Shown here: positions 6,199-39,946 of the stretch, piece by piece
How positions within the stretch are numbered: position 1 is the first letter of the stretch
Layout of the letters: each line of letters opens with the position of its first letter
Source of the DNA: a virus
Taxonomy: Duplodnaviria; Caudoviricetes
DNA: 39,946 nucleotides
Reading direction: 5' to 3' (one strand)
IMG/VR virus record: IMGVR_UViG_3300030376_003169
Span: 1-39,946 of that record
Made by a program: the position numbers and the translations under genes
Notes under the pieces: model-generated
What the model saw: only the letters and a program-made list of their open reading frames with translations
Databases searched by the model: none
Told to the model about the DNA's origin: nothing

Positions 6199-9100
6199 CT
6201 ATTTATTCCGTTGTGCTTTAAGACGTTTTTCTAATTTTACAGTACCTGCACTAGGTGACATAAGTGGTGCATACTCTTTTATAATCTCTGCAAACTCACT
6301 ATCTTTATCCATCCAGTATAGATGTTTACCAAATACAGGTATATGTCTTACCCAATTAGCACCACGCTTTTTAAAATCTCTCCAAGCATACTTAGCTGGT
6401 TCTCTTGTATTTTTATATTTATCCAATCGTTTATGTAGAAACCTTAAATCGGATACAGGGTCATCTACATAATCAAAAGGTGGTACAAGCATTTTTAAAA
6501 TAGCTTGTGAAGGTTTGCTGTTAATAAAATTATAATAATGATATCTGGACACACCAGCCAGTTTTAATAAATTTGACCAGACTAATTCGTTTATAGGTGT
6601 TTTTCTACCAGCCATCCAATCTTTAATTGTATCTGCCCCTGCCTCAGCCATAGCTAATACTGTTCCAAGCATTACCATATTCATCATAGCAGAAGCGTGT
6701 TTGCCTTCTTTTTTTAGCATATTTGTTTCGTTAACAAAAACATCAAACCTTTTTAGCATAAATGTTTTTAGCATATAAAACACTCTACCATTAGGGTGTT
6801 GCATATATCCTATAGGCACTTCACTTTTAGCTACAGGTTGTACATCTAATAATTCACTGTAAGCTAATAATTCTGTTAACTCAGTACGTTTACCAGAAGC
6901 TAGATCGTTTATAAGTTGTTGAGATTCAGATTGGCTAAACTTTCGATTTATTCTTCTTTGTAAATCACGAGTTAATTTATTGTTGCGACCACGTACAATC
7001 TGACTTGCACCTTTTTCATATTTTTTCATACTGGTGTTAATAAAGGTTTCTTTACCTACCCTATCCATTGTAGATAGTCCAGAAAGCCTAAATACCCATG
7101 TCATAGCTCGTTGAAGTGATGTTTGATTATCACTAAGCTCTTGAAGTATTCTATTGTCAACACCTAGCTGTTTTAATTTGTATTTGTTTAATCGTGTTAA
7201 ACTTTTAAACATTTCGCTAATTACTCGTGTATATGTAGAAGGTCGCAATAAACCTATAGCACTACCTTTTGCAGAACGATACACAGATACGCCCAAGTCT
7301 CCAAGCTGTGTAACTGCACTAAAAACACTACCCATTGTAGATATGTAACCAACATTGCGAACACCAGCTACAAAAGAATTCATTGTCTGGTCGTTGTAGT
7401 ACGCTTCTAATATTGTACGCACTCTTTCGACCTCATCCCTGTTTAGCTTAAAATCGCTTTCTAAATCTATAAGCATTGAACCTATTTGGTCTTGTAGACC
7501 TACATATGGCAATCCCGTTCTAAGCTGTTCCTCTTTTCGTTTTACTTCCATTGCCTGTATTGCTTTAGGCGTATTCCTGCTTTCAAATACCAAAAGATTG
7601 TTTTGCTCGTTTTGTTCGAACTGACCAATCTTATTATCGTATATACCTACGCCTTTTATTCGTGTATTCTTTGGAAACTTTCTAAAAGAAAATCTGTTTG
7701 GTCTTCCACCCATAAATTGTGCCGTAGCAATCATTTGAGACATACCATTAGCATACATAGCTAAGCTATTATGTGGCTCATCGTAGAATCTTAATTGATC
7801 TACTGTTAGCTTGTCAATTTTTCTCGTCTTGCTCCAGTCAGCAGTATTGCTCAATAATCCTTTTTTATCTCTTAATAAAGCGTTTGCAATAGCTACCTTT
7901 TCTTCGTCAGTTAAATCTCTTCCTCTATATTCTCTAGCACTTGCAAAGGCTTCTTCTAATTTGCTACGTCTGGATGTCGCAGTCTGACCACTTACATATT
8001 TATAGAAAGCTCTGTGGTCTACCACTGTTCTTGGAAAATGATTTTCAATATGACCCATATCTATCCCCACAGCCATAGCTTGTTCGTGTAATGCCTCGTG
8101 TGAACGGACAAACTCTCTATATTGGTTAATACGTCTTTTTGTTTTTAAGATAGATTCTACTGTCGCTGTATCTCCATTATATAGTGCAAGTTTTAACGCC
8201 ACGTATTCTGCTTTAGCTCTACGAGTCCTAGCTTTTTTCTGCATACGTCTTAATGTCTTGCCAAATGGTTTTACAGCTACCAGATATTTATCTAATATAT
8301 CAAAGGCTCTTTTCTGGGAACGTCTAAGTCTTTCAGTTATTTTAGGATTTATGCGATTAAGCTGGGACGATATAGTCCTAAAATAGTCTCTAAATTGTTT
8401 TACAGCGTTAACCTTAGCATCACGTTTAGCATTACGTCTTTCTTGTCTAGTAACTTTTTTGTTAAATGCTTTAGCATATTCTTTCTCATTAATACCACGT
8501 AAACTAAATAACGAGTCTTGATTAGGGTCTTCTTGATTCAGTGATTCTATTAGCTCTTGCTTTTGCTTTTTTACGTCCCGTCTTTGCGATTGCAAATCTT
8601 TACGTAATGTTTCGTAAACGTCTGTTTCTTTGGCGTTTGTTTCTTCTGCTATTTTTTTAGCTTCTTCACTTAAACTTTTTGTGTCTTCAAGTTGTGCAGT
8701 TATACTAGATATTTGATTATCAAGAGCATCTACTTCATTTTTAGTTGTTTCGTCAGCATCTTCGGGTAGTCGAGCCGTATCTTTTCTTAACTGCTTTAAA
8801 ATAGATGAAGGTCTATCCTTCATTCCATCGACCTTTTCTAAGGTCATTGACAAGTTGAGACCTATCTTTTGATCGTCACCTTCAATAGCATTTTCGTTAT
8901 AAAGATATGTAAATATATCGTCTTCATGCTTATTGGTCATCCAATCGTATTTTTTACGATAGCCACCAACAAGACTTGCAGTGCTTACTATACGTTTAAA
9001 TCCACTGGTATTTTCGTAATTATCTTTAAACTTACCTTTTGAGTCTAAAAATGATAAGTTATACAAAGACTTTGCTTTACCTACAGAAATTGAAGGCAAG

Positions 9101-11688
9101 TCTTTATTTATTTGTACAAATGAGTCACCACGATCAAATCTTCTTCTTACAACACTAGCATTTTCAAATGTAGTTTGCTCTGTTCTTGCTAAATTACCTA
9201 TCTCAGAATAATCTCTAGCTTGTTCTAGGGTAGTGCCTTCTGGCAATATCTTGTATGTAGCATTATCTACTCTACCTTTAATAACGCCTAACTGTCTATG
9301 ATGTCCACTGACTACATACAGTTTGCTGTCTTTAGGGTCTTTCCATAGTATTGGTTCGTCCCACTTAACTGGGTCAAAATTACCAGCAATATCATCAATC
9401 ATCTGCTGATTATACTCTTCACGAGGTTGAAATTTATTTTCGTCTATAACAATAGAATTTGTATTTAGCTCTTCTACCTGTAGACCTTTTGCTTCTTTAG
9501 TTTTAGTTGGCTTTTCTTCAACTGCGACAGGTTCAGAAGTAGGTTCAGGTGTTGGGGTAGGTTCAGCTTCTACTACTGGCTCTGGTTCTGCTACAGGTTC
9601 TGGAGTAGGTTCAGCCTCTACTACTGGCTCATCCATTATAATAGGTTCGGTTGGTATAATGCCATCAACTAGGTTCGAGCCATCATCTAATTGCATTTCT
9701 CCCAAAACACCTTTAGTTATATTTTCAGGGAGTTTTGCATAAGAGGGCAAAGAGGTTTCAATAAATCCCATTTCATTCATAAATGATTTACTAAACAGCT
9801 CTGCCCCATTATACGCAAGAGTCTCATTGTTTAATTGAGCCTCGTTTACAACACCCTCTATCCACAGGTCGATATCACTCGCAAGTTCTGGATTAACTTC
9901 TCCAACTCTTGTGTAGATAGCCTCTGCTGTATCTTCAAGGAAATCGGCTTGGGTTGCGTCTTCTCCAAGTACAATACGTCTAGTTCCATCCCCAAATTCG
10001 TAGTTCTGTGCTGGGATTGAGAATCTATATCTATTGACTCCATCATCGACATAGCCTGTTTCTCCTTTCTTAATTAAATCTTCTTTTCTTGTTTCTGGGT
10101 TGTATTGAGCTTGACGCACCTCTTCTTCTGTAAATACATCTACGACTGGAGCATCTGTAAAGCCTATATTTATTTGCCCTTTATATTTGCTTAAATTGTC
10201 TACTCTTCTTTTCTGATCTTCTTGTGTTTTATTTACAGGTTGTTGTTCTTGGTCTAGCCTAGCACTCGATATGTCTTGAACAAGAGGGTCATTATCAGGT
10301 ACTTCAATAGTATTTCCATTGTCAAACGTCAGTCTGACTGTACCTGCTACCCCACCTGTACCAATCTCGACTATACTTTCTGCTACGATTGCTGGTACGT
10401 TAAATACTTCACCTTCTTCAGGGTCTAGTGCAACTGCTTGACCTACAAATTCTCCAGTACCACCAAGCCCAGCTTGTTCTAAAATTTCTTTTCCTACAGC
10501 AGTAATGCCTTTAGTAAGACCCATACCTCTAGCCATTTTAAGGTGTCTACCAGCTACGCCTCCACTTAATGCGTCAACCACAGCTACAGGTACACCTTTT
10601 TCCAGTGCTTCTCGTTTTGCTTTAGCATTTATTTCTGGGTTAGTAAATGCCTCTACTAATTCATCAGGGTCTTTAACATTAACTCCTTGTTGACTAAAAG
10701 AGTTTAAAATCTCACTAGACCATTCTATTCCTAATGATGCAATACCACTAGCAGTTGCGATTGGCAACCAAGCTGGTGCTCCTACTATCGCAGTAGCGAT
10801 GCCAAGAGGCAAACCAACAGCAAAACCTACTGGTAAAAATTGTACAAAACTTTCTATAGTTAACTGAGTCGCAACAGCAATAGGGTCAGCTTTCATTTCT
10901 TTTAATGTTTGACCGAAATCGTTATCAGGTCTCATAGCCCGTTCAAAAGTTTCTGAGGCAGGTTTATCTTCTAAGCCTGACTGCTCTATTGCTATTTGCT
11001 TAACTCTTTCTTCAGGGTCGATACCAAGCTGATACCCTAGAACATTGGTCATGGTTTTTAAATTACCATAGCCTCTTAAAAACGCATTTTTTGAACCTTC
11101 AACTTCATCTTGAGATATGTCTAATGAAGTCATTACATCGCTTTTAAACTGATCGTAATCAAATTTTTGAACAGATGCTTTAACTTTAGATATTTGGTCT
11201 CTAATACCATCTGCACTATACAGCCCAGTTTCTATTAGCTTATCTACTTCTTTTTCTTGTTCTGGAAATTCAGCGTGTAACTCTTCTTTTCTTTTTAAAA
11301 GATTATTGCGATTATCGCTTCTTTCGATTGCACCTGCCCAGTCTTGTTGACTTTTGTTTTGCTTTATCATAGACGCATAATTTTGAACTGTAGGGCTTGT
11401 CTCTGGTAATCCAGTATATATAGATGCAAACTTCATACTATCTCCACCAGACCTTTCCCAGATATTGTCTATAATAAAATTAGATGCCTGAGTTCCCGTT
11501 TCAGGGTTATCGTAGTATGCAGTAAATAAATTAGGATTGTCGGGAAGTGGGTCTCCTCTTTGAGCACCATACCTTTCCTCTAGTTCAGGTGTCCATATAT
11601 GAGCACCATAGTTATTATGCCTTTGAGAGCGTGGGCTTGTTTCAAAGGTGTTTATAACTTTATATAGAAATCCATTCTTGTCAGTCAT
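6199..11688 (-). CDS. Large ejection / internal virion protein (polyvalent) with lysozyme-like N-terminus and ParB-like domain
   Basis: 1829 aa at the ejection-protein position; RHNNYG motif near N-terminus; hydrophobic G/A segments; PE-rich linker; FQPR...PILW...YVVSGHHR ParB/Srx-like motif; helical basic C-terminal half. Confidence 0.75.
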   Translation of the reverse strand: MTDKNGFLYKVINTFETSPRSQRHNNYGAHIWTPELEERYGAQRGDPLPDNPNLFTAYYDNPETGTQASNFIIDNIWERSGGDSMKFASIYTGLPETSPTVQNYASMIKQNKSQQDWAGAIERSDNRNNLLKRKEELHAEFPEQEKEVDKLIETGLYSADGIRDQISKVKASVQKFDYDQFKSDVMTSLDISQDEVEGSKNAFLRGYGNLKTMTNVLGYQLGIDPEERVKQIAIEQSGLEDKPASETFERAMRPDNDFGQTLKEMKADPIAVATQLTIESFVQFLPVGFAVGLPLGIATAIVGAPAWLPIATASGIASLGIEWSSEILNSFSQQGVNVKDPDELVEAFTNPEINAKAKREALEKGVPVAVVDALSGGVAGRHLKMARGMGLTKGITAVGKEILEQAGLGGTGEFVGQAVALDPEEGEVFNVPAIVAESIVEIGTGGVAGTVRLTFDNGNTIEVPDNDPLVQDISSARLDQEQQPVNKTQEDQKRRVDNLSKYKGQINIGFTDAPVVDVFTEEEVRQAQYNPETRKEDLIKKGETGYVDDGVNRYRFSIPAQNYEFGDGTRRIVLGEDATQADFLEDTAEAIYTRVGEVNPELASDIDLWIEGVVNEAQLNNETLAYNGAELFSKSFMNEMGFIETSLPSYAKLPENITKGVLGEMQLDDGSNLVDGIIPTEPIIMDEPVVEAEPTPEPVAEPEPVVEAEPTPTPEPTSEPVAVEEKPTKTKEAKGLQVEELNTNSIVIDENKFQPREEYNQQMIDDIAGNFDPVKWDEPILWKDPKDSKLYVVSGHHRQLGVIKGRVDNATYKILPEGTTLEQARDYSEIGNLARTEQTTFENASVVRRRFDRGDSFVQINKDLPSISVGKAKSLYNLSFLDSKGKFKDNYENTSGFKRIVSTASLVGGYRKKYDWMTNKHEDDIFTYLYNENAIEGDDQKIGLNLSMTLEKVDGMKDRPSSILKQLRKDTARLPEDADETTKNEVDALDNQISSITAQLEDTKSLSEEAKKIAEETNAKETDVYETLRKDLQSQRRDVKKQKQELIESLNQEDPNQDSLFSLRGINEKEYAKAFNKKVTRQERRNAKRDAKVNAVKQFRDYFRTISSQLNRINPKITERLRRSQKRAFDILDKYLVAVKPFGKTLRRMQKKARTRRAKAEYVALKLALYNGDTATVESILKTKRRINQYREFVRSHEALHEQAMAVGIDMGHIENHFPRTVVDHRAFYKYVSGQTATSRRSKLEEAFASAREYRGRDLTDEEKVAIANALLRDKKGLLSNTADWSKTRKIDKLTVDQLRFYDEPHNSLAMYANGMSQMIATAQFMGGRPNRFSFRKFPKNTRIKGVGIYDNKIGQFEQNEQNNLLVFESRNTPKAIQAMEVKRKEEQLRTGLPYVGLQDQIGSMLIDLESDFKLNRDEVERVRTILEAYYNDQTMNSFVAGVRNVGYISTMGSVFSAVTQLGDLGVSVYRSAKGSAIGLLRPSTYTRVISEMFKSLTRLNKYKLKQLGVDNRILQELSDNQTSLQRAMTWVFRLSGLSTMDRVGKETFINTSMKKYEKGASQIVRGRNNKLTRDLQRRINRKFSQSESQQLINDLASGKRTELTELLAYSELLDVQPVAKSEVPIGYMQHPNGRVFYMLKTFMLKRFDVFVNETNMLKKEGKHASAMMNMVMLGTVLAMAEAGADTIKDWMAGRKTPINELVWSNLLKLAGVSRYHYYNFINSKPSQAILKMLVPPFDYVDDPVSDLRFLHKRLDKYKNTREPAKYAWRDFKKRGANWVRHIPVFGKHLYWMDKDSEFAEIIKEYAPLMSPSAGTVKLEKRLKAQRNK
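9557..9630. repeat. 26-bp direct repeat (48-bp period) encoding EPVVEAEPT linker
   Basis: GTAGGTTCAGC(T/C)TCTACTACTGGCTC at 9557-9582 and 9605-9630. Confidence 0.9.
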
Positions 11689-13530: not shown

Positions 13531-13773
13531 TTATCCTACTTTAGTTGCTGTTATATAATACAATACACCATCACGATCTCTTATATACAAACGACCTTCG
13601 TCATTTGCTGGGTCTGCTGGTGCTAATTGAGAGGCTGTTAAGCTAGTAAACTTAAAATCTCCCATTCCTAAATCTTCTTTTGTTACAGCTTTGTTGTCAA
13701 ATGCAATGCTGTTTTGCTTATTGTCAACTTCGCTTTGTATTTTTCTTTCAGTGCCAAATTTCTTTTTAGCCAT
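13531..13773 (-). CDS. Small tail-associated protein
   Basis: P...EGRLYIRDRDGVLYY resembles fibre-docking motifs; position after nozzle module. Confidence 0.5.
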   Translation of the reverse strand: MAKKKFGTERKIQSEVDNKQNSIAFDNKAVTKEDLGMGDFKFTSLTASQLAPADPANDEGRLYIRDRDGVLYYITATKVG

Positions 13774-14125
13774 CTACTTCAACCTCCAATTTGCCTATTT
13801 CTATGTTTGTCGCACTTGTAGAAGCAGTTGATACTTCTACCATTATGCTATTAGCTCTGCGTCCCACAGCAAGGCTTTTGTATTTATCTCCACTACTACT
13901 GTTGGCACTCATTTGTCCAGTAGGTGAACTCCATATTGCAGACGAACTATCTCCGTTTGCATAAATCTTGGCAGTGATGACTTCAGAGCTTAAATAACGT
14001 GCGTTTAAACGTCTAATGGTTGTATTACGTGACATATCAGTAAGAGGTATCCAACCAGTCTTACGTTTCGTTGTAAATTGCTCCCCATCAGCACCACCTA
14101 AGTGATATATTGTAGAATTTGCCAT
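13766..14125 (-). CDS. Stand-alone nozzle C-terminal-like beta domain
   Basis: TIYHL...F...KTGWI...TIRRLN..YLS...IEIGKLEVEVDG aligns by eye with the C-terminus of 14125..15339. Confidence 0.6.
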   Translation of the reverse strand: MANSTIYHLGGADGEQFTTKRKTGWIPLTDMSRNTTIRRLNARYLSSEVITAKIYANGDSSSAIWSSPTGQMSANSSSGDKYKSLAVGRRANSIMVEVSTASTSATNIEIGKLEVEVDG

Positions 14126-15339
14126 TAATCATCTACCTCTATTTCAATTTTTTCAATACGCACGTTCTCATTTGAAGATTGAGTAGTCTCAATCGAGATT
14201 AGAAAATACTTAACCCTTGTAGCTAACCTAATACTATCGTGAGTAGCCGTTTGAGATGATGGTAGTATTTTTGTAGCAAAAGGTGTACTGTAATCATCAT
14301 CTTTAAATATTTTAAGCGTAACATCACTATCACTTAAATAATCAAGGTTTACACGTCTAATTATTGTGTTATTACTTAAATTATTAGGCATTATCCAGCC
14401 TGTCCTGTATATAGCTTGAAATGCCTCATCTGTACCACCAGCGTTTAATTCATATACGTTTCCAGATTTTTGTATAGACTTTACCCAAGTATCTGTGACG
14501 CTCATTTCTTCATTAATAAGCCTCAAATGACCATCTGAGTCTGTATCAGATGTACCCAAACCTTCTTCTATTGTGCGTGAAAAAAGCCAAACTCTTGCGA
14601 CAGACGAGTCTGTATCGCTTGAAGCTAAAGTCTCGGCAAAAGTTTTAAATTTTTTCCAAAGCCTACTTACCTTAGAATCACTATCTGACATAACTAAACC
14701 CTCGGCTAGTGTTCGTATTTTAATCCAATTTCTAGTTGCTTTAGAATCAGTGTCAGATGGATTTAACACTTCTGCTAATGATCTAATCTTTTTCCACTGG
14801 CGAGTTTGTTTAGATGATGTATCTGAAGCAGTCATTCCTTCAGCTATAGTTCTTATAAATGACCACGTTCTTGATACCTTAGAGTCTGTATCAGACGAAG
14901 TTAGGGTTTCAGCTAAGGTTCTAACGTGCTTCCATATTCCAGTTGTTTTAGTGGGGGTATCGCTTTTATTTATAACCTCAGCTAATGTTCTTGATATTGT
15001 TGCACCAGTAATCGATATTGCATTGTTACTTCTATCTTTAACATTTGAATCATTTACTTTGCGTACCCAAATATATATGCTTGAGCCTGATAAAGATGAT
15101 GGTACGTTCCAAACATAGGGATGCGTATTATAGTTTGTAACAATATTATTAGATGTAGAAAAAGTAGTAGACGTTGTATAATATAAATCTACGTTATCTG
15201 TAAAATTAGTCTTTGTCCATTGGATTGTAATGTTTTGAGTATGTTGAAATGAACCTGAGTTTGGTGCATTAAGAACAATGCTTTGAGGCTCTTGTATTGT
15301 AAACTGTTGACTGGTTGCAGTTACATTATTTATAGCCAT
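14125..15339 (-). CDS. Ig-like domain + 23-aa repeat stalk + nozzle C-terminal-like domain
   Basis: ITIQW...VDLYY...YVWNVP Ig-like (Kre9/KNH-type) motif; RTLAE....SDTDSK..R.W repeats; YRTGWI...IIRRVNLDYLS...IEIEVDD C-terminus. Confidence 0.7.
   Translation of the reverse strand: MAINNVTATSQQFTIQEPQSIVLNAPNSGSFQHTQNITIQWTKTNFTDNVDLYYTTSTTFSTSNNIVTNYNTHPYVWNVPSSLSGSSIYIWVRKVNDSNVKDRSNNAISITGATISRTLAEVINKSDTPTKTTGIWKHVRTLAETLTSSDTDSKVSRTWSFIRTIAEGMTASDTSSKQTRQWKKIRSLAEVLNPSDTDSKATRNWIKIRTLAEGLVMSDSDSKVSRLWKKFKTFAETLASSDTDSSVARVWLFSRTIEEGLGTSDTDSDGHLRLINEEMSVTDTWVKSIQKSGNVYELNAGGTDEAFQAIYRTGWIMPNNLSNNTIIRRVNLDYLSDSDVTLKIFKDDDYSTPFATKILPSSQTATHDSIRLATRVKYFLISIETTQSSNENVRIEKIEIEVDD
14530..14991 (-). 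repeat. Coding tandem repeat, 69-nt (23-aa) period, six full units and one partial
   Basis: Units begin RTLAE, RTLAE, RTIAE, RSLAE, RTLAE, KTFAE, RTIEE; first codon at 14991 and seventh at 14577 (6 x 69). Confidence 0.92.
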
Positions 15340-15617
15340 TAAGGACTACCCCCACCCCCATCGTCGTGAGTGGTGTGTACCTGTATTGTATAATTTGTAT
15401 CTGCAACAATACTTTCAGGTATTGTCCAGCTATAGTTAGTTAAAGCACCATTTAAATTTGATACAATAGTGGTTACAAAATTTGTTCCACGATAAAGATA
15501 TAATGCAGAAACACCCCACGTTCCAGAAGAAGGTGTTCTTGACCAAGTTATATTTACAGTAGTTTCTTTATCAAATACAGAACTACTGGTAGGATTTCCA
15601 AATGTTATCGATGCCAT
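15339..15617 (-). CDS. Ig-like (Kre9/KNH-type) single-domain protein
   Basis: VNITW...LYLYRG...YSWTIPESI....YTIQV motif. Confidence 0.7.
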   Translation of the reverse strand: MASITFGNPTSSSVFDKETTVNITWSRTPSSGTWGVSALYLYRGTNFVTTIVSNLNGALTNYSWTIPESIVADTNYTIQVHTTHDDGGGGSP

Positions 15618-15620
15618 TCA

Positions 15621-16202
15621 TTAGCTCACTTCTATCGTCCACGTTATATCAATAATATCATTTAGTGCTGGTTGTATTCTATCGCTTGATGTAAGCGTAC
15701 AAGAAGCAAAAGGTGTGTCAAAGACCTCTAAATTTGAGGCTAAACTCATACCTAATTTAAATTCTGTAATATAATTACTTGTACTTTCCATAGATGATAT
15801 ATTTGCTTCAAAGTCACTGTTAACCCATTGTGCCTGGGCTTTCCATCGTGCTTTTGTAGATGAGGCTTCATCTTCTGTTTGATTGTATTTAAATAGCAAT
15901 GTGGTGTCCGTTTCAGAGTCACCACCTTGTCCAGTATATGAACCTAAAGAAACTGGCAAGTTTATAGCTATAATTCCAGACTGACCAATAACAGCATTAT
16001 TATCGTTACCACCTGATGTATATGAAGCAAATCCAAAGTTAGGATTTAAATATATACCAGCCGTTCCTGAAGTGTCGTCAAAGTGACCAATAATTTTTGA
16101 GATAAGACCAGTTGAGCTAGTATCTATAGCATTTCTTTTTACGACTTGCTGTACAACTCCTTCGTTTGGTCTTATGACTTTTAAATCAAATATTCCTACC
16201 AT
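15621..16202 (-). CDS. Tail collar/fibre-type beta-sandwich protein, paralog 2
   Basis: G.F.L...NAI...ITEFKL...NDIIDITWTIEVS pattern shared with 16211..16750. Confidence 0.55.
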   Translation of the reverse strand: MVGIFDLKVIRPNEGVVQQVVKRNAIDTSSTGLISKIIGHFDDTSGTAGIYLNPNFGFASYTSGGNDNNAVIGQSGIIAINLPVSLGSYTGQGGDSETDTTLLFKYNQTEDEASSTKARWKAQAQWVNSDFEANISSMESTSNYITEFKLGMSLASNLEVFDTPFASCTLTSSDRIQPALNDIIDITWTIEVS

Positions 16203-16210
16203 AACATATC

Positions 16211-16750
16211 CTATGAAATACTGGTTGAGCCTTTTACGGCTTGTATAACCCAGCTTATTGTTAATTGATCTCCATTACCTATAGTTGTGCTTGACCAGTT
16301 TGAACCACTAGCTATATCTAGTCCATAATTATTGTTACTACCACTTAGCTTATTTCTTTTTATATAAATAGCAGAGATTGTATAGCTTTGAGTTGCACGA
16401 ACGATTCCAGTAAATGTTATACTAAATCCATTGGTAATAGATGTAGGAGAACCTAATGTAGTTTGAGCACCCACATAATATGAACCACCCGTATTTAAAA
16501 CAATGCCACCTGTACCTGTGGACGGAACTGTCAGGCTACTTGTGTTAGACCCTTGCCCACTTCCATCATTACTATGCAATGCACCACCCATTCTCCAAAT
16601 CTTAGAAGCATCATCACTTACCATTGCGTCTACAATCGTTTGCTTATAAAGAGCTTCTATTGCATTGTCTTGTTCAAAATTTTCAGTTGTTCCGTCTGCT
16701 CTTAATATTTCAGCAGACCACTTACCAGTTATTCCTATACTATCTAACAT
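16211..16750 (-). CDS. Tail collar/fibre-type beta-sandwich protein, paralog 1
   Basis: GKWSAEI...QDNAI...GDQLTISWVIQ pattern. Confidence 0.55.
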   Translation of the reverse strand: MLDSIGITGKWSAEILRADGTTENFEQDNAIEALYKQTIVDAMVSDDASKIWRMGGALHSNDGSGQGSNTSSLTVPSTGTGGIVLNTGGSYYVGAQTTLGSPTSITNGFSITFTGIVRATQSYTISAIYIKRNKLSGSNNNYGLDIASGSNWSSTTIGNGDQLTISWVIQAVKGSTSIS

Positions 16751-16752
16751 AC

Positions 16753-18816
16753 TTAACTTTCATTGTGAGTTGTATAAACTTTTAAATCTGCATCTATAGA
16801 TAAAAGGTCTACGGATTTTGCTGAAGCAAATGTTAATTTATTCCAAGACTCTTGTCCACTTGCAATTTTTAAATAATCTAAGGCATAAATCTTTGTACCA
16901 TCGCTACCAAATCTAAATAACACTCTATTTTTTAAAGGGTCATAGATGCCTATTGTTTGATTTAGGTTTGTTGAGCCTGTATATATATCTTTAATTGCAG
17001 TTGTAACTGGAGCACTACTCATCCCTGCACCTGTCATATAAATATTATCTGTACCTGCAAAGAACAAATATTGTCCAGCTTCTACAATACTATTTCTTGC
17101 TATACATCCGATATTTGCATCAGCTTCTCGTAGTGAGTAACTAGCTGGGTTACCAGAAGGAGCAAATAATTGATATACACCTCTTTCCATTAAAACAACT
17201 AGATTGTCGTTTAATCTTCGCATCCCCATTATCTCACCACCTTGTGAGTCTTTAATTTGTATGAAATTAGACACAGGTAAAATGTCTGGCTGATTTATTG
17301 GACTAAATATTATAAAGTCATCGTGCTTTTCAGCTTCATCATCAGGATCTAAATTTACATTTCCAGCAAAAAACCTTCCGTTTACAAAAGCACCATGCTT
17401 ATAATTAACTTTATTTTTTGTGGTAGTTAAAGGATGTGTCCTATCGTTTGTAAGACCATTGTCTACTACGTGTATTTTAAATTGATTTCCTGACAATGAC
17501 TCAAATCTATATCCATTGGTCATTTCTGCTATAGTAACATTGCTTCCTAGTGCAGTACTGTCAGCATTTAATTCTATAGCCCTGCCAAGACTTTTTGTTA
17601 CTGTTAAAAACTGAGTACCTATCTTTTGTATCCAGCCAATTTTTTCACCTACTGAAAAATTCCAATTATTTGATGTTCGTGTATCGTATACCATATTTTT
17701 ACCAAATCGTACACCATTAACACTTACACCACCAGAGGTTTGTTGAGAACCATTACCATCAAGATATGTACCTTGAATAGATATGCTAACATCCCAACCA
17801 TTAGAACTCACATTACTCGGTAAATAAATAACATTGTCTGTAAAATGGTCAGAGTCACTACCACTTACTCCATGACCTTTTAAATCTTTAGAAACACCAC
17901 CTATATTTACACTTACAACTCCTTGCGATTTGTCGCCTGATGTTACACTAGCATATACTGTGGAAATGGCATTAGATATTCCTCCTGCGTGTGCGTACGC
18001 TATATTGCCTATTCTTGACGTGCTGTTTCCAGCAGTCTTATCAGTTGAAGTTGATTTAGTAGATAAGTTTATAGACTTTACGAGTCTATATACAGGTGTC
18101 AAAGTATCGTCTGCACTAAAATGCCTGTACACATTAGCACCAGTAATTCTTGGGTTATAATCGTCTGTATCTACAGTAATAGAAAACTCTATTGAGTCAT
18201 CGTTTCCAGATACAGCTTGTTTTATAAATTGATCTTGGAGTTGAACTTCCTGATTTCCGTCAAACACAGGAACAACTTTATAATAGTATGTACCTGTGGC
18301 TAAAGAACCTGTAGCAGTACCTTCTTTATTTAGCGACCAAGTTGTTGGATATGAAGGACTTGCAGAATCATACTTTAAAGCATCGTGCGTATATCCACCA
18401 AAAAAGAATTCTCTATCAATGTACTGCAAAAAGCCAACATTTTGGTCATGTCCGTTTGCAAAACGTAAGCTATTAGCCATAGGTATTATTTGTATGTCTG
18501 AAGGTGGGTTAGATGAAAAAGTGTGCAATACAGCTTTATTAGAAAAATCTTTATTAAACTTTATGATTTCATTGCTTTGGTCTTCAAAGCCAATCCAATT
18601 AGCACCTCCAGTTAAATTACTGTCTACCCAATAAAATAATTGAGTAAGGTGCGTACCATTTAAAGTTCCTTTAGACTCCAGACCTTTTCTTTTGATTAAT
18701 TTCCCTAAGACATCTACATCAAAATTTTCAGTCTCAGATGTGGCGTTTGGTGGTATATCTTCAGGGTCGACGTTTGTTAATAGTCCACCATCGAATATTG
18801 GTATCTCTATTATCAT
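16753..18816 (-). CDS. Tail nozzle / stabilization protein (P22 gp10- or T7 gp12-like), apparently lacking its C-terminal domain
   Basis: FDGGL...P.DIP...ENFD...G.L.KRKG start; GRFFAGN, IIFS..NQPD, IGCIARNSI propeller motifs; GTYYYKVV insertion domain. Confidence 0.8.
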   Translation of the reverse strand: MIIEIPIFDGGLLTNVDPEDIPPNATSETENFDVDVLGKLIKRKGLESKGTLNGTHLTQLFYWVDSNLTGGANWIGFEDQSNEIIKFNKDFSNKAVLHTFSSNPPSDIQIIPMANSLRFANGHDQNVGFLQYIDREFFFGGYTHDALKYDSASPSYPTTWSLNKEGTATGSLATGTYYYKVVPVFDGNQEVQLQDQFIKQAVSGNDDSIEFSITVDTDDYNPRITGANVYRHFSADDTLTPVYRLVKSINLSTKSTSTDKTAGNSTSRIGNIAYAHAGGISNAISTVYASVTSGDKSQGVVSVNIGGVSKDLKGHGVSGSDSDHFTDNVIYLPSNVSSNGWDVSISIQGTYLDGNGSQQTSGGVSVNGVRFGKNMVYDTRTSNNWNFSVGEKIGWIQKIGTQFLTVTKSLGRAIELNADSTALGSNVTIAEMTNGYRFESLSGNQFKIHVVDNGLTNDRTHPLTTTKNKVNYKHGAFVNGRFFAGNVNLDPDDEAEKHDDFIIFSPINQPDILPVSNFIQIKDSQGGEIMGMRRLNDNLVVLMERGVYQLFAPSGNPASYSLREADANIGCIARNSIVEAGQYLFFAGTDNIYMTGAGMSSAPVTTAIKDIYTGSTNLNQTIGIYDPLKNRVLFRFGSDGTKIYALDYLKIASGQESWNKLTFASAKSVDLLSIDADLKVYTTHNES

Positions 18817-19736
18817 AAAACATCTTGGACTTGACCAGAGCCATAACTCTGTCGACTTTGATATTGACCCTTAACAATGTCTCTGTTCCGATTATATCTA
18901 CTCATATGCCTATCAGATAAATCATATCTACCTATGTCTTCATATAGCATTGCTTTTATATAATCTATAAGCATAGGATGGTATGCTTGTAAAATTGATG
19001 GACTGTCTCCAGCCTTAGCAAAACTATATGCTAATCCACTGGTTGTTGCTCTTGCACCTAGACCTATTGTGTCCCAATTTGATAATAAATTATTCCAAGT
19101 ATTTTGTTCTTGTAGATTCATAGCCTGTTCTTCGTCAAGTTGAACAATTTGCTCATTGGCTTGGAACGTGCCAGATACATTGGAAACAACTAAAGTACCA
19201 GTTTTATTATCATTTATATCTTCTTCTATAGTTGCTGTAGCATTTGAGGTCATGCCTTGCACTTCCTTGCCAACTTGCCAATATCCAGATAATAGATTAG
19301 TATAATTTATTCGTTTATAAGCAGTAGCACTATCTTCCAGATTATTTACAGTCGCTACGTAATTAAAAAGCAACCTACCTACAGTTTGTGGGGAAGGGTA
19401 CAAACAAAGGTTGTTGCCTTTTATTTCATAATATTCTGGTGTACCGACTCTGTATGTGCCATCTGAATTTCTTCTGGCAAACATTTTGTGTTCAGGATAA
19501 ATCCTAACAACACGATTGCGAAACTCAATGTAACTAGCAAGTTCAATAAAGTCATCAGGTAGCTCAATTTCTCTATCATCTTTATCTATATATACGCCAC
19601 GAGTCCTCTCGTACGATTTTGTATGATAAGCAAAGTCTTGTTGAGCTTCTTCGCCATATTTTTTGGCTTTAACTTTTGTTTCATCGCTAGGCTCAAAAGG
19701 AACACTAGCTCGGTCTACGATCTGTGACCAAAGCAT
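18813..19736 (-). CDS. Head-tail adaptor/ring protein with inserted beta domain
   Basis: EAQ, ELPDDF, GTPEYY, LYPSP and YHPMLIDY adaptor motifs. Confidence 0.75.
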   Translation of the reverse strand: MLWSQIVDRASVPFEPSDETKVKAKKYGEEAQQDFAYHTKSYERTRGVYIDKDDREIELPDDFIELASYIEFRNRVVRIYPEHKMFARRNSDGTYRVGTPEYYEIKGNNLCLYPSPQTVGRLLFNYVATVNNLEDSATAYKRINYTNLLSGYWQVGKEVQGMTSNATATIEEDINDNKTGTLVVSNVSGTFQANEQIVQLDEEQAMNLQEQNTWNNLLSNWDTIGLGARATTSGLAYSFAKAGDSPSILQAYHPMLIDYIKAMLYEDIGRYDLSDRHMSRYNRNRDIVKGQYQSRQSYGSGQVQDVL

Positions 19737-20470
19737 TATGCTCTACCCTGCGTACCAATTCCTTTTGGTTTTTCTACCTGATACCTATCATTTAGTGCTT
19801 TTATTAAATTAATTGCATTTGTATAAGCTACTCCAGCTCTGTCAGGTTTATTATCCATTTTCCATAGCTGTGATTCTGCAAAGTCTAATATTACTTCGTG
19901 CAAAGATACATTCATCTCACATTCAGTAGAAAGCGTTCCACTTGTATATTCCGTTGGATTTTTTACATACCAAACATCTAACGCTTTTACTGCATCTGTG
20001 CCAGTTAAAGGTTCGACATAAATTGCATCTTGAAATACGTAGGCTACAGGATTACTTCCTGAACCAGCTAAATATGAATTTTCTAATCTTTTAACGTCTT
20101 GTGGTTCAATCATATTTGCAAAACCTAAAGACACTAAAGCGAAGTCAGACCCACCAGTTGTACCAGTAGATTTGTACGCCTTCACAGCAACCACTCCACC
20201 ACGTATAGGATCAATATTTAAATCACTAGCACTGCTACCTGTAAAGTTAGATTTACCTGACGCTACTCCGTTAGCAGTTACGCCTCCACCAGCCGTAGAA
20301 GTTGCTAAATCAATGCTTTGTAATTCTGTTAAATATGCGTTATCTATAAGACTTACGACAGTACGCTGTGCAATATTAATTGCTTTAATTTTTGTCGCTT
20401 GGGTAAATGATGCTTGATCAGGGTCTTCCAACCTTAGTCCGAGCATATCTACCATTTCAGTTCCAGTCAT
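19736..20470 (-). CDS. Head-tail adaptor/ring protein
   Basis: INIAQ, PVAY...IYVEP, WYVKNP and LHEVILDFA motifs; follows capsid genes. Confidence 0.75.
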   Translation of the reverse strand: MTGTEMVDMLGLRLEDPDQASFTQATKIKAINIAQRTVVSLIDNAYLTELQSIDLATSTAGGGVTANGVASGKSNFTGSSASDLNIDPIRGGVVAVKAYKSTGTTGGSDFALVSLGFANMIEPQDVKRLENSYLAGSGSNPVAYVFQDAIYVEPLTGTDAVKALDVWYVKNPTEYTSGTLSTECEMNVSLHEVILDFAESQLWKMDNKPDRAGVAYTNAINLIKALNDRYQVEKPKGIGTQGRA

Positions 20471-32183: not shown

Positions 32184-32652
32184 TAAATTCTATTTGAAGT
32201 TGTGATACAAGCTGAGGATAGTTTGTACCCTCCCTTACCTCTTTGAATTGTAACTCATTAAATTGTTCAAAGTATTTAGGGTAGCTTTTAGGTAGGTCTT
32301 GACCAGCACTACACTTACACGCATACATCTCTGTATTGTAATAGACGACACGCTTGTCTTGTTTAGGACTTAACATTCTAGGGACATAGCCAACGCCTCC
32401 ACAAAAATAGCAATCATCATAAGACTTTAATTGTGACTGCTCTTTATTTATAAGACCCATACTATTAATGATTCCCCATAATTGTTTGATCGTTGGGAAT
32501 CTGTCTTCATCGTCTCTAACGTGTTTAAATAGCTTATAAGATTTATCGCTACCTAGCTTATCAAATATCTTTAAGTATTCATCAAATTGTGCATCCATTG
32601 GTCTCTTACCATGAACTGCAAACATTGTGGTTAATATGTCTTCGTTATTCAT
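32032..32652 (-). CDS. Putative helicase loader / replication partner with zinc finger
   Basis: RFPTIKQL motif then CYFCGGVG...ACKC; ATGA-coupled to the initiator gene. Confidence 0.6.
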   Translation of the reverse strand: MNNEDILTTMFAVHGKRPMDAQFDEYLKIFDKLGSDKSYKLFKHVRDDEDRFPTIKQLWGIINSMGLINKEQSQLKSYDDCYFCGGVGYVPRMLSPKQDKRVVYYNTEMYACKCSAGQDLPKSYPKYFEQFNELQFKEVREGTNYPQLVSQLQIEFNEKLHKESEKGNGNRNGNSKSKRADARTGGQNTSGLGAKELREALKKITG

Positions 32653-33383
32653 TTTAATCTAAAGCCCTCGTTCCTTAGTTTTGGTTCTTCTGGTGGTATG
32701 GATTTCCATCGCTCCTCACTCAGCCACGCATAACTTGTCTTAATAAATTGAGGTTCTACACGCTGAACGAAAAGCTCCATAGCTTCTTGAATGGTACTCA
32801 CGCTTTCCTTTTGTGTCGCCTTAATCCAATTCTTCTTAGTCCTTGTTTTATTGATTCTCCTAATTGGGGGGATGGTATTCCAAAACTTTACAAAGTCTTC
32901 TATTTCCTTATCCTTAATTACCGTTTCAGAAGATTCGCTTATATGTTTATTATCTTCTTTATTATCTTTCTTTAGTATTCCTTTAGTGGTTTCGCTAATA
33001 GGGGTATTAACGGTTTCGCTAAGACCCTCTAAGCGATTTCGCAAAGCAGGGGTAGGGGTAATTAATCGTTTCGTGATTTGCTTAGTTACTTTATCACGGT
33101 CTATGTGTATGTTTAAATACTTCATCTTTTTAAGATTGTTAAGATGAACGCTTACACGAGTTGGATGAATACCTAATATTTCACCTATGTAATGATTGGT
33201 GGCAATACAAGGCTTATCGCTACTAAGATTTAATACCATACTGACAATAATCTTTTGATGGAGCGTTAAATCATCAATCATAAATACAGCCTTAGGTATC
33301 CATACACCTTTAAACACTTCAGGAATCATTTTCTTCCTTTGCATCTTCATCTGCCCATTTGGAATAAAATTCGGCAGTAGCAT
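32649..33383 (-). CDS. Replication initiator (winged HTH, lambda O-like organisation)
   Basis: FKGVWIP, ATNHYIGEILG...V...L..L HTH; FVKFW and WLSEERW C-domain; internal iterons. True start probably 33329-33350. Confidence 0.8.
   Translation of the reverse strand: MLLPNFIPNGQMKMQRKKMIPEVFKGVWIPKAVFMIDDLTLHQKIIVSMVLNLSSDKPCIATNHYIGEILGIHPTRVSVHLNNLKKMKYLNIHIDRDKVTKQITKRLITPTPALRNRLEGLSETVNTPISETTKGILKKDNKEDNKHISESSETVIKDKEIEDFVKFWNTIPPIRRINKTRTKKNWIKATQKESVSTIQEAMELFVQRVEPQFIKTSYAWLSEERWKSIPPEEPKLRNEGFRLK
32946..33077. repeat. Iteron-like repeats plus AT-rich tandem, candidate replication origin
   Basis: GGTTTCGCTAA at 32988 and 33012, GATTTCGCAAA at 33035, CGTTTCGTGAT at 33067; TTTATTATCTT twice from 32946. 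Confidence 0.65.
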
Positions 33384-35458: not shown

Positions 35459-36460
35459 ATGACATTGTTTAAAAAGAAAGGTCGACTAAACTGGTATTAT
35501 GAGAAACGGGGCTACATAAAGCAAACATCCTTATATACTTCAGACAAAAGAAAAGCGACGATGATTGCGCACGAATTTGATGAAATGGTGTTGCGAATGA
35601 AAAACGGACTAATGACCCCTGAAGAATTTAATCTACGCAAAACAAAAAAGATTAAAATAGATGAGGTTTATAAGAAGTTTTACGATCTAAATATTAAAAA
35701 ATATGCAGACAACAAAAGAAAAACTCGGTACACCACATCTAAGCTAAAGCCTTTTGTAGAAAAATATAAGAACAAGACCTTAATAGAGTTTAATTATGAG
35801 ATGGCTTGTGAGTACAGAGAATATCTCTTAAGCAAGAATGGAAAAAGATATACTACAAAAACTGCAAACAATCATTTAAGTGTAATCAAGATGATGTTTG
35901 AGTGGGCTGTAAATTCAAAGTATATCGCTAACAATCCATTTAAAGTAAATGGATTCCTCCCTTCCACTAAGCCTAAAAATCCAAGAAAACCAATTCCTGT
36001 AGAACATATTGTTGACGCTATTGCTGTGACTAAAAACGAATCTGATAAAATATATTGGACAGTATTATTACACACAGGATTAAGAAGGCACGATGCTGGT
36101 ACACTTACACCAGATGATGTTGAGCGTGGTATCTTTCAAAAGAAATCAGGAGAATACAGAGCAATATTTGTCACAGATGAATTGAAGCGATTGGGTGATA
36201 AAATATATAATGCTATGCCTACAAAAAGAAAGCAACAAGATAGTTTAGAGCGTTTTCAAGCTATTATAATGGAAAGACACGGCTATAAAACAGATTTTCA
36301 TAGTATCAGGCACACTGTATTCACGATGCTTGTGAACAATGGATTCGATGAAAACCAAGTTGGCAAGATATTAGGTACGGAAAGCTCAGTCGGTACATAC
36401 GCAAAAACTGACATTAATAGAGCAACCCAAACCATAAACAAATTGATCGCTGAGTCATAG
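35459..36460 (+). CDS. int: Tyrosine integrase
   Basis: SAM-like core-binding region, HTGLRR, K, FHSIRHT, LG...Y; GGAG SD. Confidence 0.92.
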   Translation: MTLFKKKGRLNWYYEKRGYIKQTSLYTSDKRKATMIAHEFDEMVLRMKNGLMTPEEFNLRKTKKIKIDEVYKKFYDLNIKKYADNKRKTRYTTSKLKPFVEKYKNKTLIEFNYEMACEYREYLLSKNGKRYTTKTANNHLSVIKMMFEWAVNSKYIANNPFKVNGFLPSTKPKNPRKPIPVEHIVDAIAVTKNESDKIYWTVLLHTGLRRHDAGTLTPDDVERGIFQKKSGEYRAIFVTDELKRLGDKIYNAMPTKRKQQDSLERFQAIIMERHGYKTDFHSIRHTVFTMLVNNGFDENQVGKILGTESSVGTYAKTDINRATQTINKLIAES

Positions 36461-36716: not shown

Positions 36717-37115
36717 CTAAATTAATTCAAAATGAACAAGGTCTTTAAAGGTTTCTGTACCTTTTGTTTTACCTTTAATCCCAAAGAGCTTATCATTATC
36801 CCAATCATTTCCCCACCTGAGCTTAACTCCCATCATATGAGCGTAAGCAAACATCATACCTGCTAAGTAATTAAACCTAGCTAAGTTCTCCCAGTCTACT
36901 GGATATGGTGCGATATCGATAGCACGACCTTCAAGATGTTTTGACTTTAGTGTCTTTGACTTACCTTCCTTCACATATTTCTTTTGTGTTTCGAGGTCTC
37001 TTTTACCTTCTATAACCGTGATATCAAAATCTTTTACTACAGCGTGGCACAGCGTTACTAATCTTGGGTCAACGCCTTCCAATCTGGATAATGATCGTTT
37101 ACCAAGTTTAGCCAT
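36717..37115 (-). CDS. Endolysin, M15-family L-Ala-D-Glu peptidase
   Basis: EGKR...Q, SKHLEGRAID, RWG..W, D..HFEL. Confidence 0.92.
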   Translation of the reverse strand: MAKLGKRSLSRLEGVDPRLVTLCHAVVKDFDITVIEGKRDLETQKKYVKEGKSKTLKSKHLEGRAIDIAPYPVDWENLARFNYLAGMMFAYAHMMGVKLRWGNDWDNDKLFGIKGKTKGTETFKDLVHFELI

Positions 37116-38598: not shown

Positions 38599-38855
38599 TA
38601 ATTACTACCATTGTTAATTCTTTGAGCATCTATATAAAATTTATTGTAAATACCTAAACTATCTGCTTCCCACACAACTTTACGCATCAAACTATCTAAC
38701 TCAAACATTTCTTGTGATAGTTCTTCTCGTGTCTTACCTATGTAATAGTCTTGACAACTAAAGATGCTTACCATAAATGCTAAGACAAATCCAAGTATTA
38801 CAAATCCGTGAAGAATTTTTGAGAAATCTGCAAATTCGTTTAATTTACGCTTCAA
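38598..38855 (-). CDS. Putative lipoprotein (spanin-like)
   Basis: Basic N-terminus, hydrophobic stretch, IFSC lipobox-like motif. Confidence 0.55.
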   Translation of the reverse strand: MKRKLNEFADFSKILHGFVILGFVLAFMVSIFSCQDYYIGKTREELSQEMFELDSLMRKVVWEADSLGIYNKFYIDAQRINNGSN

Positions 38856-39946
38856 GTGCTTCTATCCTTGCTCTTAGTTCATTGTTTTGTGATGATAGTT
38901 CCTGAACTGCTTTAGTTAAATGTGCAACTATACCACTTGTATTAATAGATTTACCAAAGTTATTAAAACCTTTATCTTCATCTTCAATTACATCACCAAC
39001 TCTACCACTTGGATAATCTGTATTAAAATCTTCACCCTCAACATCATTTGGTAATAATTTTTCTACCTCTTGTGCGATAAATCCTGAATTACTACCTTTC
39101 TTTTTATTCTTCCAATCAAATGTTACTGGATTGAGTTTATTTATAATAGAAAGACCACTATCTATTGTTTTAATATTTTCTTTTAAACCAATATCTGAAG
39201 TATCATTAAAATCACCAGAAATAACCTGTGAAGTGCTTACACTATATACACCTGCACTATCATCATTATCATATAAAACATAAACTCCATTAGCTACATA
39301 GATTTCATAGTCAGCAGTTCCTCCAGATGAATTTGTTTCTTGATATCTTAAAAATGGTACACCAGTTGTATCTATGTGTATCCCTTTAGTAGCTCCTGTG
39401 CCAGAAGAATCTCCATTTTCAATACCAAGGACTCCACTCGTTTTAAGCGTAACTTGTTGTGTACCATTAGCATAAAACCTTAAATCACCACCACTACCAC
39501 TTGATGCTACACCTGTTTGCCCAGTGCCAAGAGCAGTACCTTGAAATTCTATACCTTGTTGTGAAACTATTACCCCACTAGATTTTATACGTAGTCTTTC
39601 ACCATTAGCACTTCCATTATTTGTGCTGAATCTTATATCACCTTGATTTGAGCCTAAACTATTAGATTGTATTCTTGCTAATTCAACTGTATGGTCAAGG
39701 AACATTATTAGTCCATTTATACCACTAGAATTAAATGAATGACCTTGCATCTCTAAAATAGAATAATTGTTAGCACCTGCGTTATCAGTTGAGCTTATTG
39801 TAAGAACACCTCTTTCAGAACTCCATCCACCAACACTAGGACTAGTTGTATGAACCCCTACGTTGCCACCATTAAAATAAGAATCTCCTGCTGTGTGTAA
39901 TGCAATCGTATTAGTACCAGAATGGTTTTTCATACGAATATAGCCT
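38845..39946 (-). CDS. Tail fibre, C-terminal part with peptidase S74-like chaperone
   Basis: Frame open to the window edge; SDIGLKENI...LNPVTFDWK...GFIAQEVE...KAVQEL. Confidence 0.88.
   Translation of the reverse strand, partial: GYIRMKNHSGTNTIALHTAGDSYFNGGNVGVHTTSPSVGGWSSERGVLTISSTDNAGANNYSILEMQGHSFNSSGINGLIMFLDHTVELARIQSNSLGSNQGDIRFSTNNGSANGERLRIKSSGVIVSQQGIEFQGTALGTGQTGVASSGSGGDLRFYANGTQQVTLKTSGVLGIENGDSSGTGATKGIHIDTTGVPFLRYQETNSSGGTADYEIYVANGVYVLYDNDDSAGVYSVSTSQVISGDFNDTSDIGLKENIKTIDSGLSIINKLNPVTFDWKNKKKGSNSGFIAQEVEKLLPNDVEGEDFNTDYPSGRVGDVIEDEDKGFNNFGKSINTSGIVAHLTKAVQELSSQNNELRARIEALEA

Follow-up and report, generated by a model that had tools for sequence, protein, structure and literature searches.

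The tail nozzle encoded by the IMG/VR virus record IMGVR_UViG_3300030376_003169 (Duplodnaviria; Caudoviricetes; 39,946 nucleotides, analysed at full length and referred to below as the window) is split over separate genes, and its C-terminal part exists in two alternative versions. The nozzle gene stops within the last blade of its beta-propeller, and the missing domain is encoded twice downstream, once fused behind an immunoglobulin-like (Ig) domain and a repeat stalk, here called the rope (the fused piece is termed C1), and once as a bare protein (C2). The split is genuine, as is the presence of two caps, and relatives share both. The truncated base is almost certainly completed in trans, and it is probable that both pieces are present in mature virions. 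Podophage nozzles have been treated as assemblies of six identical subunits; the symmetry of this one may well be broken.

The truncated nozzle base and its two C-terminal pieces

Pfam and PHROG scans identify the ~40 kb window as phage DNA: its minus strand encodes a terminase, a portal protein, a major capsid protein and an SU10-type adaptor. The sequencing runs that contain its sequence are mostly marine or seawater metagenomes. Past the adaptor follow genes of 687, 179, 193, 92, 404 and 119 amino acids (aa); all open reading frames (ORFs) of this cassette region are on the minus strand, where the original prediction had placed them. The 687-aa gene (16753-18816) ends with ...DLKVYTTHNES-stop and is separated from the rope gene by the three genes of 179, 193 and 92 aa. 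The motif TGWI...IRR.N..YLS occurs twice downstream, as had been noticed: in the bare 119-aa protein P0002 (C2, 13766-14125) and in the last ~112 residues (C1, 14125-14463) of the 404-aa protein P0003 (14125-15339), behind the Ig domain and repeat stalk. The C1 and C2 genes overlap by one base. When the window is scanned in six frames, a single segment of the N-terminal half of the nozzle platform (platform-N) and exactly two copies of the C-terminal domain appear.

Fold comparison and a match to PHROG 3287 (virion structural protein, E 1.8e-18) identify the 687-aa protein as a nozzle base, comprising the platform-N strands and a beta-propeller with inserted tip domains; its last blade is one strand short, and the C-terminal half of the platform (platform-C) is absent. 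Its AlphaFold model has a mean predicted local distance difference test score (pLDDT) of 82.9, with residues 1-28 and 33-40 below 50. The best Foldseek matches are the A4, SU10 and crAss001 nozzle or muzzle proteins, and VIA-align superimposes the base on solved nozzles with best Z scores of 22-26 (19-26 across the Pa223, P22, SU10, crAss001 and T7 set), while PDB chain sequence searches with the nozzle and three family profiles returned chance matches only. The end of the model, residue 687, corresponds to position 396 of 512 in Pa223, 358 of 471 in P22, 394 of 521 in VP1 and 1237 of 1361 in crAss001, and the solved nozzles run ~110-125 residues past this point. The 687-aa chain is therefore short of the C-terminal part and does not model as a complete nozzle, in agreement with the proposal that the gene was cut within the last blade. 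The propeller-plus-platform fold and the place of the gene in the tail module, behind those for portal, capsid and adaptor, are those of podophage nozzles; the single chain of T7/P22-type nozzles is lacking, the C half being encoded on two other genes. We assume that the nozzle is hexameric in the virion, by analogy with its solved relatives. In Pa223 the platform is built of N- and C-terminal segments (residues 2-46 and 403-512) and binds the adaptor (bioRxiv 10.1101/2025.06.11.659172).

The stop is not an assembly error, since 27 homologues (P0004-P0030) share the end point and a contig from another sample, covering 16452-16823 with zero differences, bridges it unchanged. The base and C2 might instead be joined at the level of RNA or translation, by splicing out or hopping over the cassette, as the end of the base followed by the start of C2 gives nearly the spacing of fused nozzles. 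We regard this as highly improbable: the interval holds four conserved structural ORFs, loci differ in the DNA past the stop and in the distance to the following gene and show no conserved junction, and C2 has its own start codon, which overlaps the C1 stop. No joints were seen in the contigs of three DNA runs, one RNA run gave no contigs, and the listed runs that contain the sequence include no RNA run, results that say nothing on expression or splicing.

Both C-terminal pieces are homologous to the C-termini of unsplit nozzles: in comparison with P0031-P0037, C2 shows 38-47% and C1 30-40% identity, so that the absence of such homology, which would have spoken against the split-nozzle proposal, was found for neither domain. 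Within the window, C1 and C2 are 35% identical over 115 aa (E 1e-18). In a tree of 109 columns, hence of limited resolution, C1 forms one clade (28 rows; Shimodaira-Hasegawa-like approximate likelihood ratio test, SH-aLRT, 96) with C2 outside it, and C2 falls in two groups near some copies from fused nozzles and from nozzles split into adjacent genes (SH-aLRT 83). The separate C1 clade indicates that the duplication is old and that both copies were retained; mean identity is 0.48 inside each class and 0.37 between C1 and C2. Of the residues conserved in fused nozzles, both pieces keep E305, G314, W315, I395 and E399, which lie inside the predicted interface with the base, as well as R328, R329, N331, Y334, S336 and R375 outside it. 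Such a shared conserved core is expected if both sit in the nozzle position.

We modelled the complex of the base with C1 (residues 283-404 of the 404-aa protein), chosen as the copy of more doubtful competence. The complex scored 0.83, the best of three controls 0.00; runs agree in at least 94% of contacts, and the partner has a pLDDT of at least 82. For calibration, 116 of 157 solved pairs pass the score mark, as do 2 of 215 mismatched pairs; these counts are only roughly valid here because our own alignments were used, and the result measures fit rather than binding, as halves of split genes tend to pass through likeness to solved chains. In the model, C1 residues 295-297 lie between base residues 680-683 and 46-48 and close the last blade, and pairing also links residues 308-312 and 393-395 of C1 to residues 27-32 and 39-42 of the base. 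The suggestion that either partner completes the base in trans is thus borne out for the rope-fused copy as a prediction; for the bare copy it draws on natural two-gene nozzles, in which adjacent genes are cut at the same loop (L105, L116, L143, L147, L156 and also L200).

These data bear on a different division of labour, by which C2 serves as completer for the whole hexamer and C1, re-purposed, anchors the rope at another site, on the adaptor ring or the outer platform. The greater BLAST similarity of C2 to fused C-termini, its grouping with some fused and adjacent-split copies, and the loss from C1 of E394, common among fused nozzles, would fit such a scheme. C1, for its part, keeps the blade strand and the base-interface residues and fits the slot in the model; it needs platform-N strands, which only the base can supply, given the single platform-N segment in the window; and the completer in the Pseudomonas podophage A1002 is itself a rope-fused half (PMC13730344). 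We therefore consider a re-purposed C1 improbable.

Conservation of the two-piece cassette among relatives

The survey of relatives comprised 162 loci (L001-L161 and the window), taken from the best 80 per scan and hence leaning to close relatives. A complete rope-C1 gene is present in 50 of them, and C2 is the next gene in all 50 (29 distinct at 95% identity); in a further 30 the cassette begins and the contig ends. Fused nozzles account for 68 loci, none of which contains cassette genes, 45 of these having at least 1.5 kb of sequence downstream. Five loci are adjacent splits with the bare C gene alone, and nine, including L044, dropped as frameshifted, are uninformative. Scans with rope and C2 alignments gave 51 new locus identifiers, and the 13 inspected yielded three further cassette contigs, all with both copies. 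No relative was found among GenBank phages and GTDB genome contigs. In quick nozzle trees a single clade of cassette loci is not rejected (approximately unbiased test, p-AU 0.56), and a clade uniting cassette with adjacent-split loci is rejected (p-AU 1e-73). In many of the fused loci L060-L161 an adaptor-like gene follows the nozzle gene rather than preceding it.

The loop at which the nozzle is cut is variable in other relatives as well. Among 182 classified proteins are 13 fused nozzles in which more than 40 additional residues separate the two parts. In six of these (P0045, P0114, P0120, P0131, P0135, P0141) an in-frame insertion of 120-320 aa lies at the split loop, that of P0045 resembling a repeat propeller. 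Five nozzles without a C piece (P0038, P0100, P0117, P0119, P0130) have C-terminal extensions of 300-600 aa with Gly/Asp/Ser-rich linkers. Such insertions and extensions in the relatives make it likely that the split loop is exposed and a hotspot. The adjacent-split locus L105 is nearly identical to the fused L103 and L060 except for a junction patch of ~30-40 nucleotides (L105:1070-1160, compared with L103, L060 and L109), so that near-identical phages differ in the fused or split state through this patch only. One loop is thus found fused, adjacent-split, inserted and in the cassette state, which provides a natural series for the origin of A1002-like split nozzles and suggests that the split evolved more than once.

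The C2 family gave no significant match in a Pfam/PHROG scan. In 16 of 25 distinct C2 relatives (e.g. L003:12695-13267) we found an insert of ~70 aa with the motif ...GDxIKIxxEIMK...VQRGMRGT, which has been lost in the sub-lineage of the window, and the C2 of L043 (L043:10021-10989) is 322 aa long.

The strict co-occurrence of C1 and C2, taken together with the poorly ordered N-terminus of the base folded alone, could point to a transient function of C2, as a placeholder that keeps the base folded until rope-loaded C1 displaces it, so that mature virions contain six C1. The insert in 16 of 25 C2 relatives and the non-interface residues kept by C2 are rather those of an exposed virion part, and a strand enclosed by blade strands on both sides would be expected to exchange slowly. 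On balance a placeholder seems improbable too, if anything slightly more so than a re-purposed C1.

The rope cassette and the composition of the ring

We read about 7-8 repeats of ~23 aa from the sequence of the rope (14464-15003, minus strand), and 23 is also the commonest Trp spacing across ropes of different loci, which range from 178 to 631 aa between them. No tandem repeat was found in the rope DNA. Leucine-rich-repeat-like rows of the Atlas structure comparison were rejected for the rope, the model being of low confidence and offering no usable feature match.

Two paralogous genes between base and rope gene likely encode fibre subunits. Paralogue A (179 aa, 16211-16750, minus strand), present in cassette loci only, is a likely dimer of the GP4 gp80/whisker kind threading on the rope: its nearest named Atlas cluster is Gp80 PF23140 (score 0.92, 18% of members), and VIA-align places the GP4 fiber I chain 8jou_a at rank 3 (Z 5.1, root-mean-square deviation 4.3, 105 of 136 residues aligned; Z below 8 is weak alone), with the Sf14 neck chain 9c39_K at Z 4.2 and two larger phage tail proteins ranking above (Z 6.4 and 6.2). 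Paralogue B (193 aa, 15621-16202, minus strand) matches A by profile-profile comparison (probability 99.3, E 5e-20) and occupies the position of A1002 gp40. In a Foldseek search of BFVD, the 179-aa model matches 28 viral proteins at E<=0.001, most of them uncharacterised; the top matches include proteins of filamentous archaeal viruses (AFV2 ORF338, SIFV gp53-like) and of haloarchaeal tailed viruses, and on account of these archaeal-virus matches the fold may be widespread.

The remaining gene of the cassette (92 aa, 15339-15617, minus strand) encodes an Ig-like domain without its last strand, Pfam Kre9_KNH covering profile positions 1-79 of 94, and all 30 members of its family end before the last-strand columns. 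Alignment and profile matches show that the N-terminal part of the rope protein (15004-15339, minus strand) consists of an extra SxxFTI strand followed by a complete Ig-like domain. Of the 50 loci with complete cassettes, 42 have both the 92-aa Ig gene and the SxxFxI strand of the rope N-terminus, and 8 have neither. A first profile test placed the rope N-terminal peptide on the Ig last-strand columns in 0 of 24 cases; with a second profile, built from 9 distant members, it fell there in 8 of 24, the commonest position, with controls at 0 of 24 at that column. Judging from these alignments, it is likely that the rope protein donates its N-terminal strand to complete the 92-aa Ig domain, in a second donor-strand split.

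In the assembly that we propose, the base would lack its last blade strand and platform half until C1 or C2 plugs in, in trans. The strand of C1 is predicted to slot between the last hairpin of the base and its N-terminal strand, and the C1 platform to pair with the N-terminal strands of the base. By analogy with A1002 and GP4, the 23-aa repeats would make up an extended rope capped by the Ig pair, and the 179- and 193-aa paralogues would dock on it as dimers by beta-augmentation, likely one dimer per repeat. Subunits completed by C1 would bring a dimer-decorated rope, and those completed by C2 would stay bare or bear a small insert. A rope and fibre role of the cassette is, in our view, likely. 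We infer that C1 and C2 may well share one hexameric ring, and since such a ring mixes rope-bearing and bare subunits, it would carry fewer than six ropes per tail. A more elaborate version is possible and must be regarded as tentative: a programmed hetero-hexamer with a fixed number of ropes, either 3+3 alternating or 5+1 matching the five-fold capsid vertex as in GP4, in which the last-blade hairpin would be a recurrent fission and insertion hotspot for the exchange of tail appendages, and the Ig tip of the rope would use the same donor-strand principle once more.

Alternatively, one genome could give two virion morphs, with rings of all C1 (six ropes, as in A1002) or all C2 (ropeless). C1 and C2 do show class-specific differences, including a reciprocal charge swap, D/E...R/K in 14 of 28 C1 and R...E in 19 of 25 C2 sequences; the A1002 hexamer is all-rope, and rope-free nozzles exist in the fused and adjacent-split relatives. 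The genes, however, are adjacent with a one-base overlap, so that both products would be made in the same cell, and no sorting factor was found. Among fused nozzles, 2 of 41 contain the same charge swap within one chain, and the base-interface residues named from the complex model do not include D333, as would be expected if the pair were intramolecular. Separate morphs are therefore unlikely, though less so than a re-purposed C1 or a placeholder.

Several points weigh against the mixed ring and the rope-bearing role of C1. A1002 was modelled with ropes on all six subunits, C6 symmetry being imposed (PMC13730344), so that six ropes are feasible there and a bare filler may be unnecessary. The charge pair, if it faces the neighbouring subunit, would favour unmixed rings, and the pass of the complex model may reflect likeness to solved unsplit nozzles. 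The fibre assignment draws on weak matches of modelled folds: Foldseek of the 179-aa model against PDB gave none at E<=0.001, Pfam/PHROG scans of the fibre families, and likewise of the rope family, gave no significant family, and the fibre families have no profile match to ORF006/007 of phage KPP25.

If two caps do share one ring, gene dosage or partner choice, and not an extra collar, could determine how many fibres a tail has and what symmetry it shows, and averaging with C6 symmetry would conceal the mixed caps. Five unannotated genes of an uncultured marine phage group also gain a testable assignment.

Upstream of the base, the region 18813-20470 (minus strand) holds the adaptor gene (307 aa; Pfam SU10_adaptor) and a 244-aa gene, possibly a second adaptor, whose product has no family match and in some loci shares profile matches with the adaptor family. 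Promoter and terminator scans stayed at chance level. Elsewhere in the window, a probable ejection protein of 1829 aa (6199-11688) has a stretch rich in proline and glutamate and, at residues 738-803, matches ParB weakly (E 6e-4). Genes for an integrase (35459-36460), a replication initiator (32649-33383), an endolysin (36717-37115) and a separate tail-fibre-like protein (38845-39933) are also present, and from this gene content the phage is likely temperate, with conventional fibre genes besides the rope cassette.

Comparison with known systems

The original prediction saw in the split nozzle its best candidate for an undescribed system. This is not supported, because a split nozzle with a rope-fused C half and intervening fibre genes has been solved in A1002 (PMC13730344), where the base gp42 is completed by gp39, consisting of Ig, rope, propeller-C and platform-C, and 11 dimers of gp40/gp41, resembling GP4 gp80, are docked on the rope, the main fibre-dock stretch spanning 226 residues. 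We found no nozzle with two alternative C-terminal genes in the open-access literature, so that, as far as the searches reach, the second, bare completer is what is new. The A1002 entries 26FB, 44NY and 44NX were not among our structure matches (PDB released up to April 2026).

The window shares with A1002 a truncated base, a completer fused behind Ig and rope, and two paralogous genes (~150-190 aa) in between, and in KPP25, of the same genus, ORFs of 398, 171, 147 and 620 aa follow the gene order of the window. The two ropes use a similar length for each unit, with ~20 aa to a dimer in A1002 and repeats of 23 aa here. Of the features characteristic of A1002, the window has a base short of the last strands and of platform-C and a separate completer with Ig, rope and C piece (complementation being predicted); the paralogy and position of the fibre genes fit, the gp80-like fold being indicated by weak matches with no Pfam match. 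The cut site differs, however: gp39 supplies five propeller strands, whereas C1 supplies one in the complex model. The window also has an extra split Ig gene, and no tail-tube gene was recognised beside its cassette. KPP25 ORF005-007 show no profile similarity to the window proteins, ORF008 giving a weak N-terminal match only (E 0.002), and no second C copy was found in 50 of the 64 kb of KPP25. Given the different cut site and the lack of profile similarity to KPP25 rope and fibre proteins, the module of the window probably represents a split independent of the Kochitakasuvirus module, though working like that of A1002.

Single-chain nozzles and hubs (Pa223 gp59, P22 gp10, SU10, crAss001 muzzle, T7 gp12) have the same fold as the base but consist of one chain. 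In Pa223, fibres attach through the loop FAL 354-387, just upstream of the point equivalent to the end of the base (396). Fibres made of a rope with dimers, as proposed here, are known from GP4 fiber I and the whiskers of Bas63 and Sf14 (PMC12609058); those ropes, in contrast, hang from the collar and not from the nozzle, and in GP4 five of them are directed toward the capsid. The mixed ring, in turn, has a counterpart in the distal tail ring of Nocturne116, where two paralogues are reported to be mixed 3+3 (PMC13595954), in the manner that we infer here. Nocturne116 is a siphophage in which whole subunits are mixed, whereas the window offers alternative halves of a split subunit.

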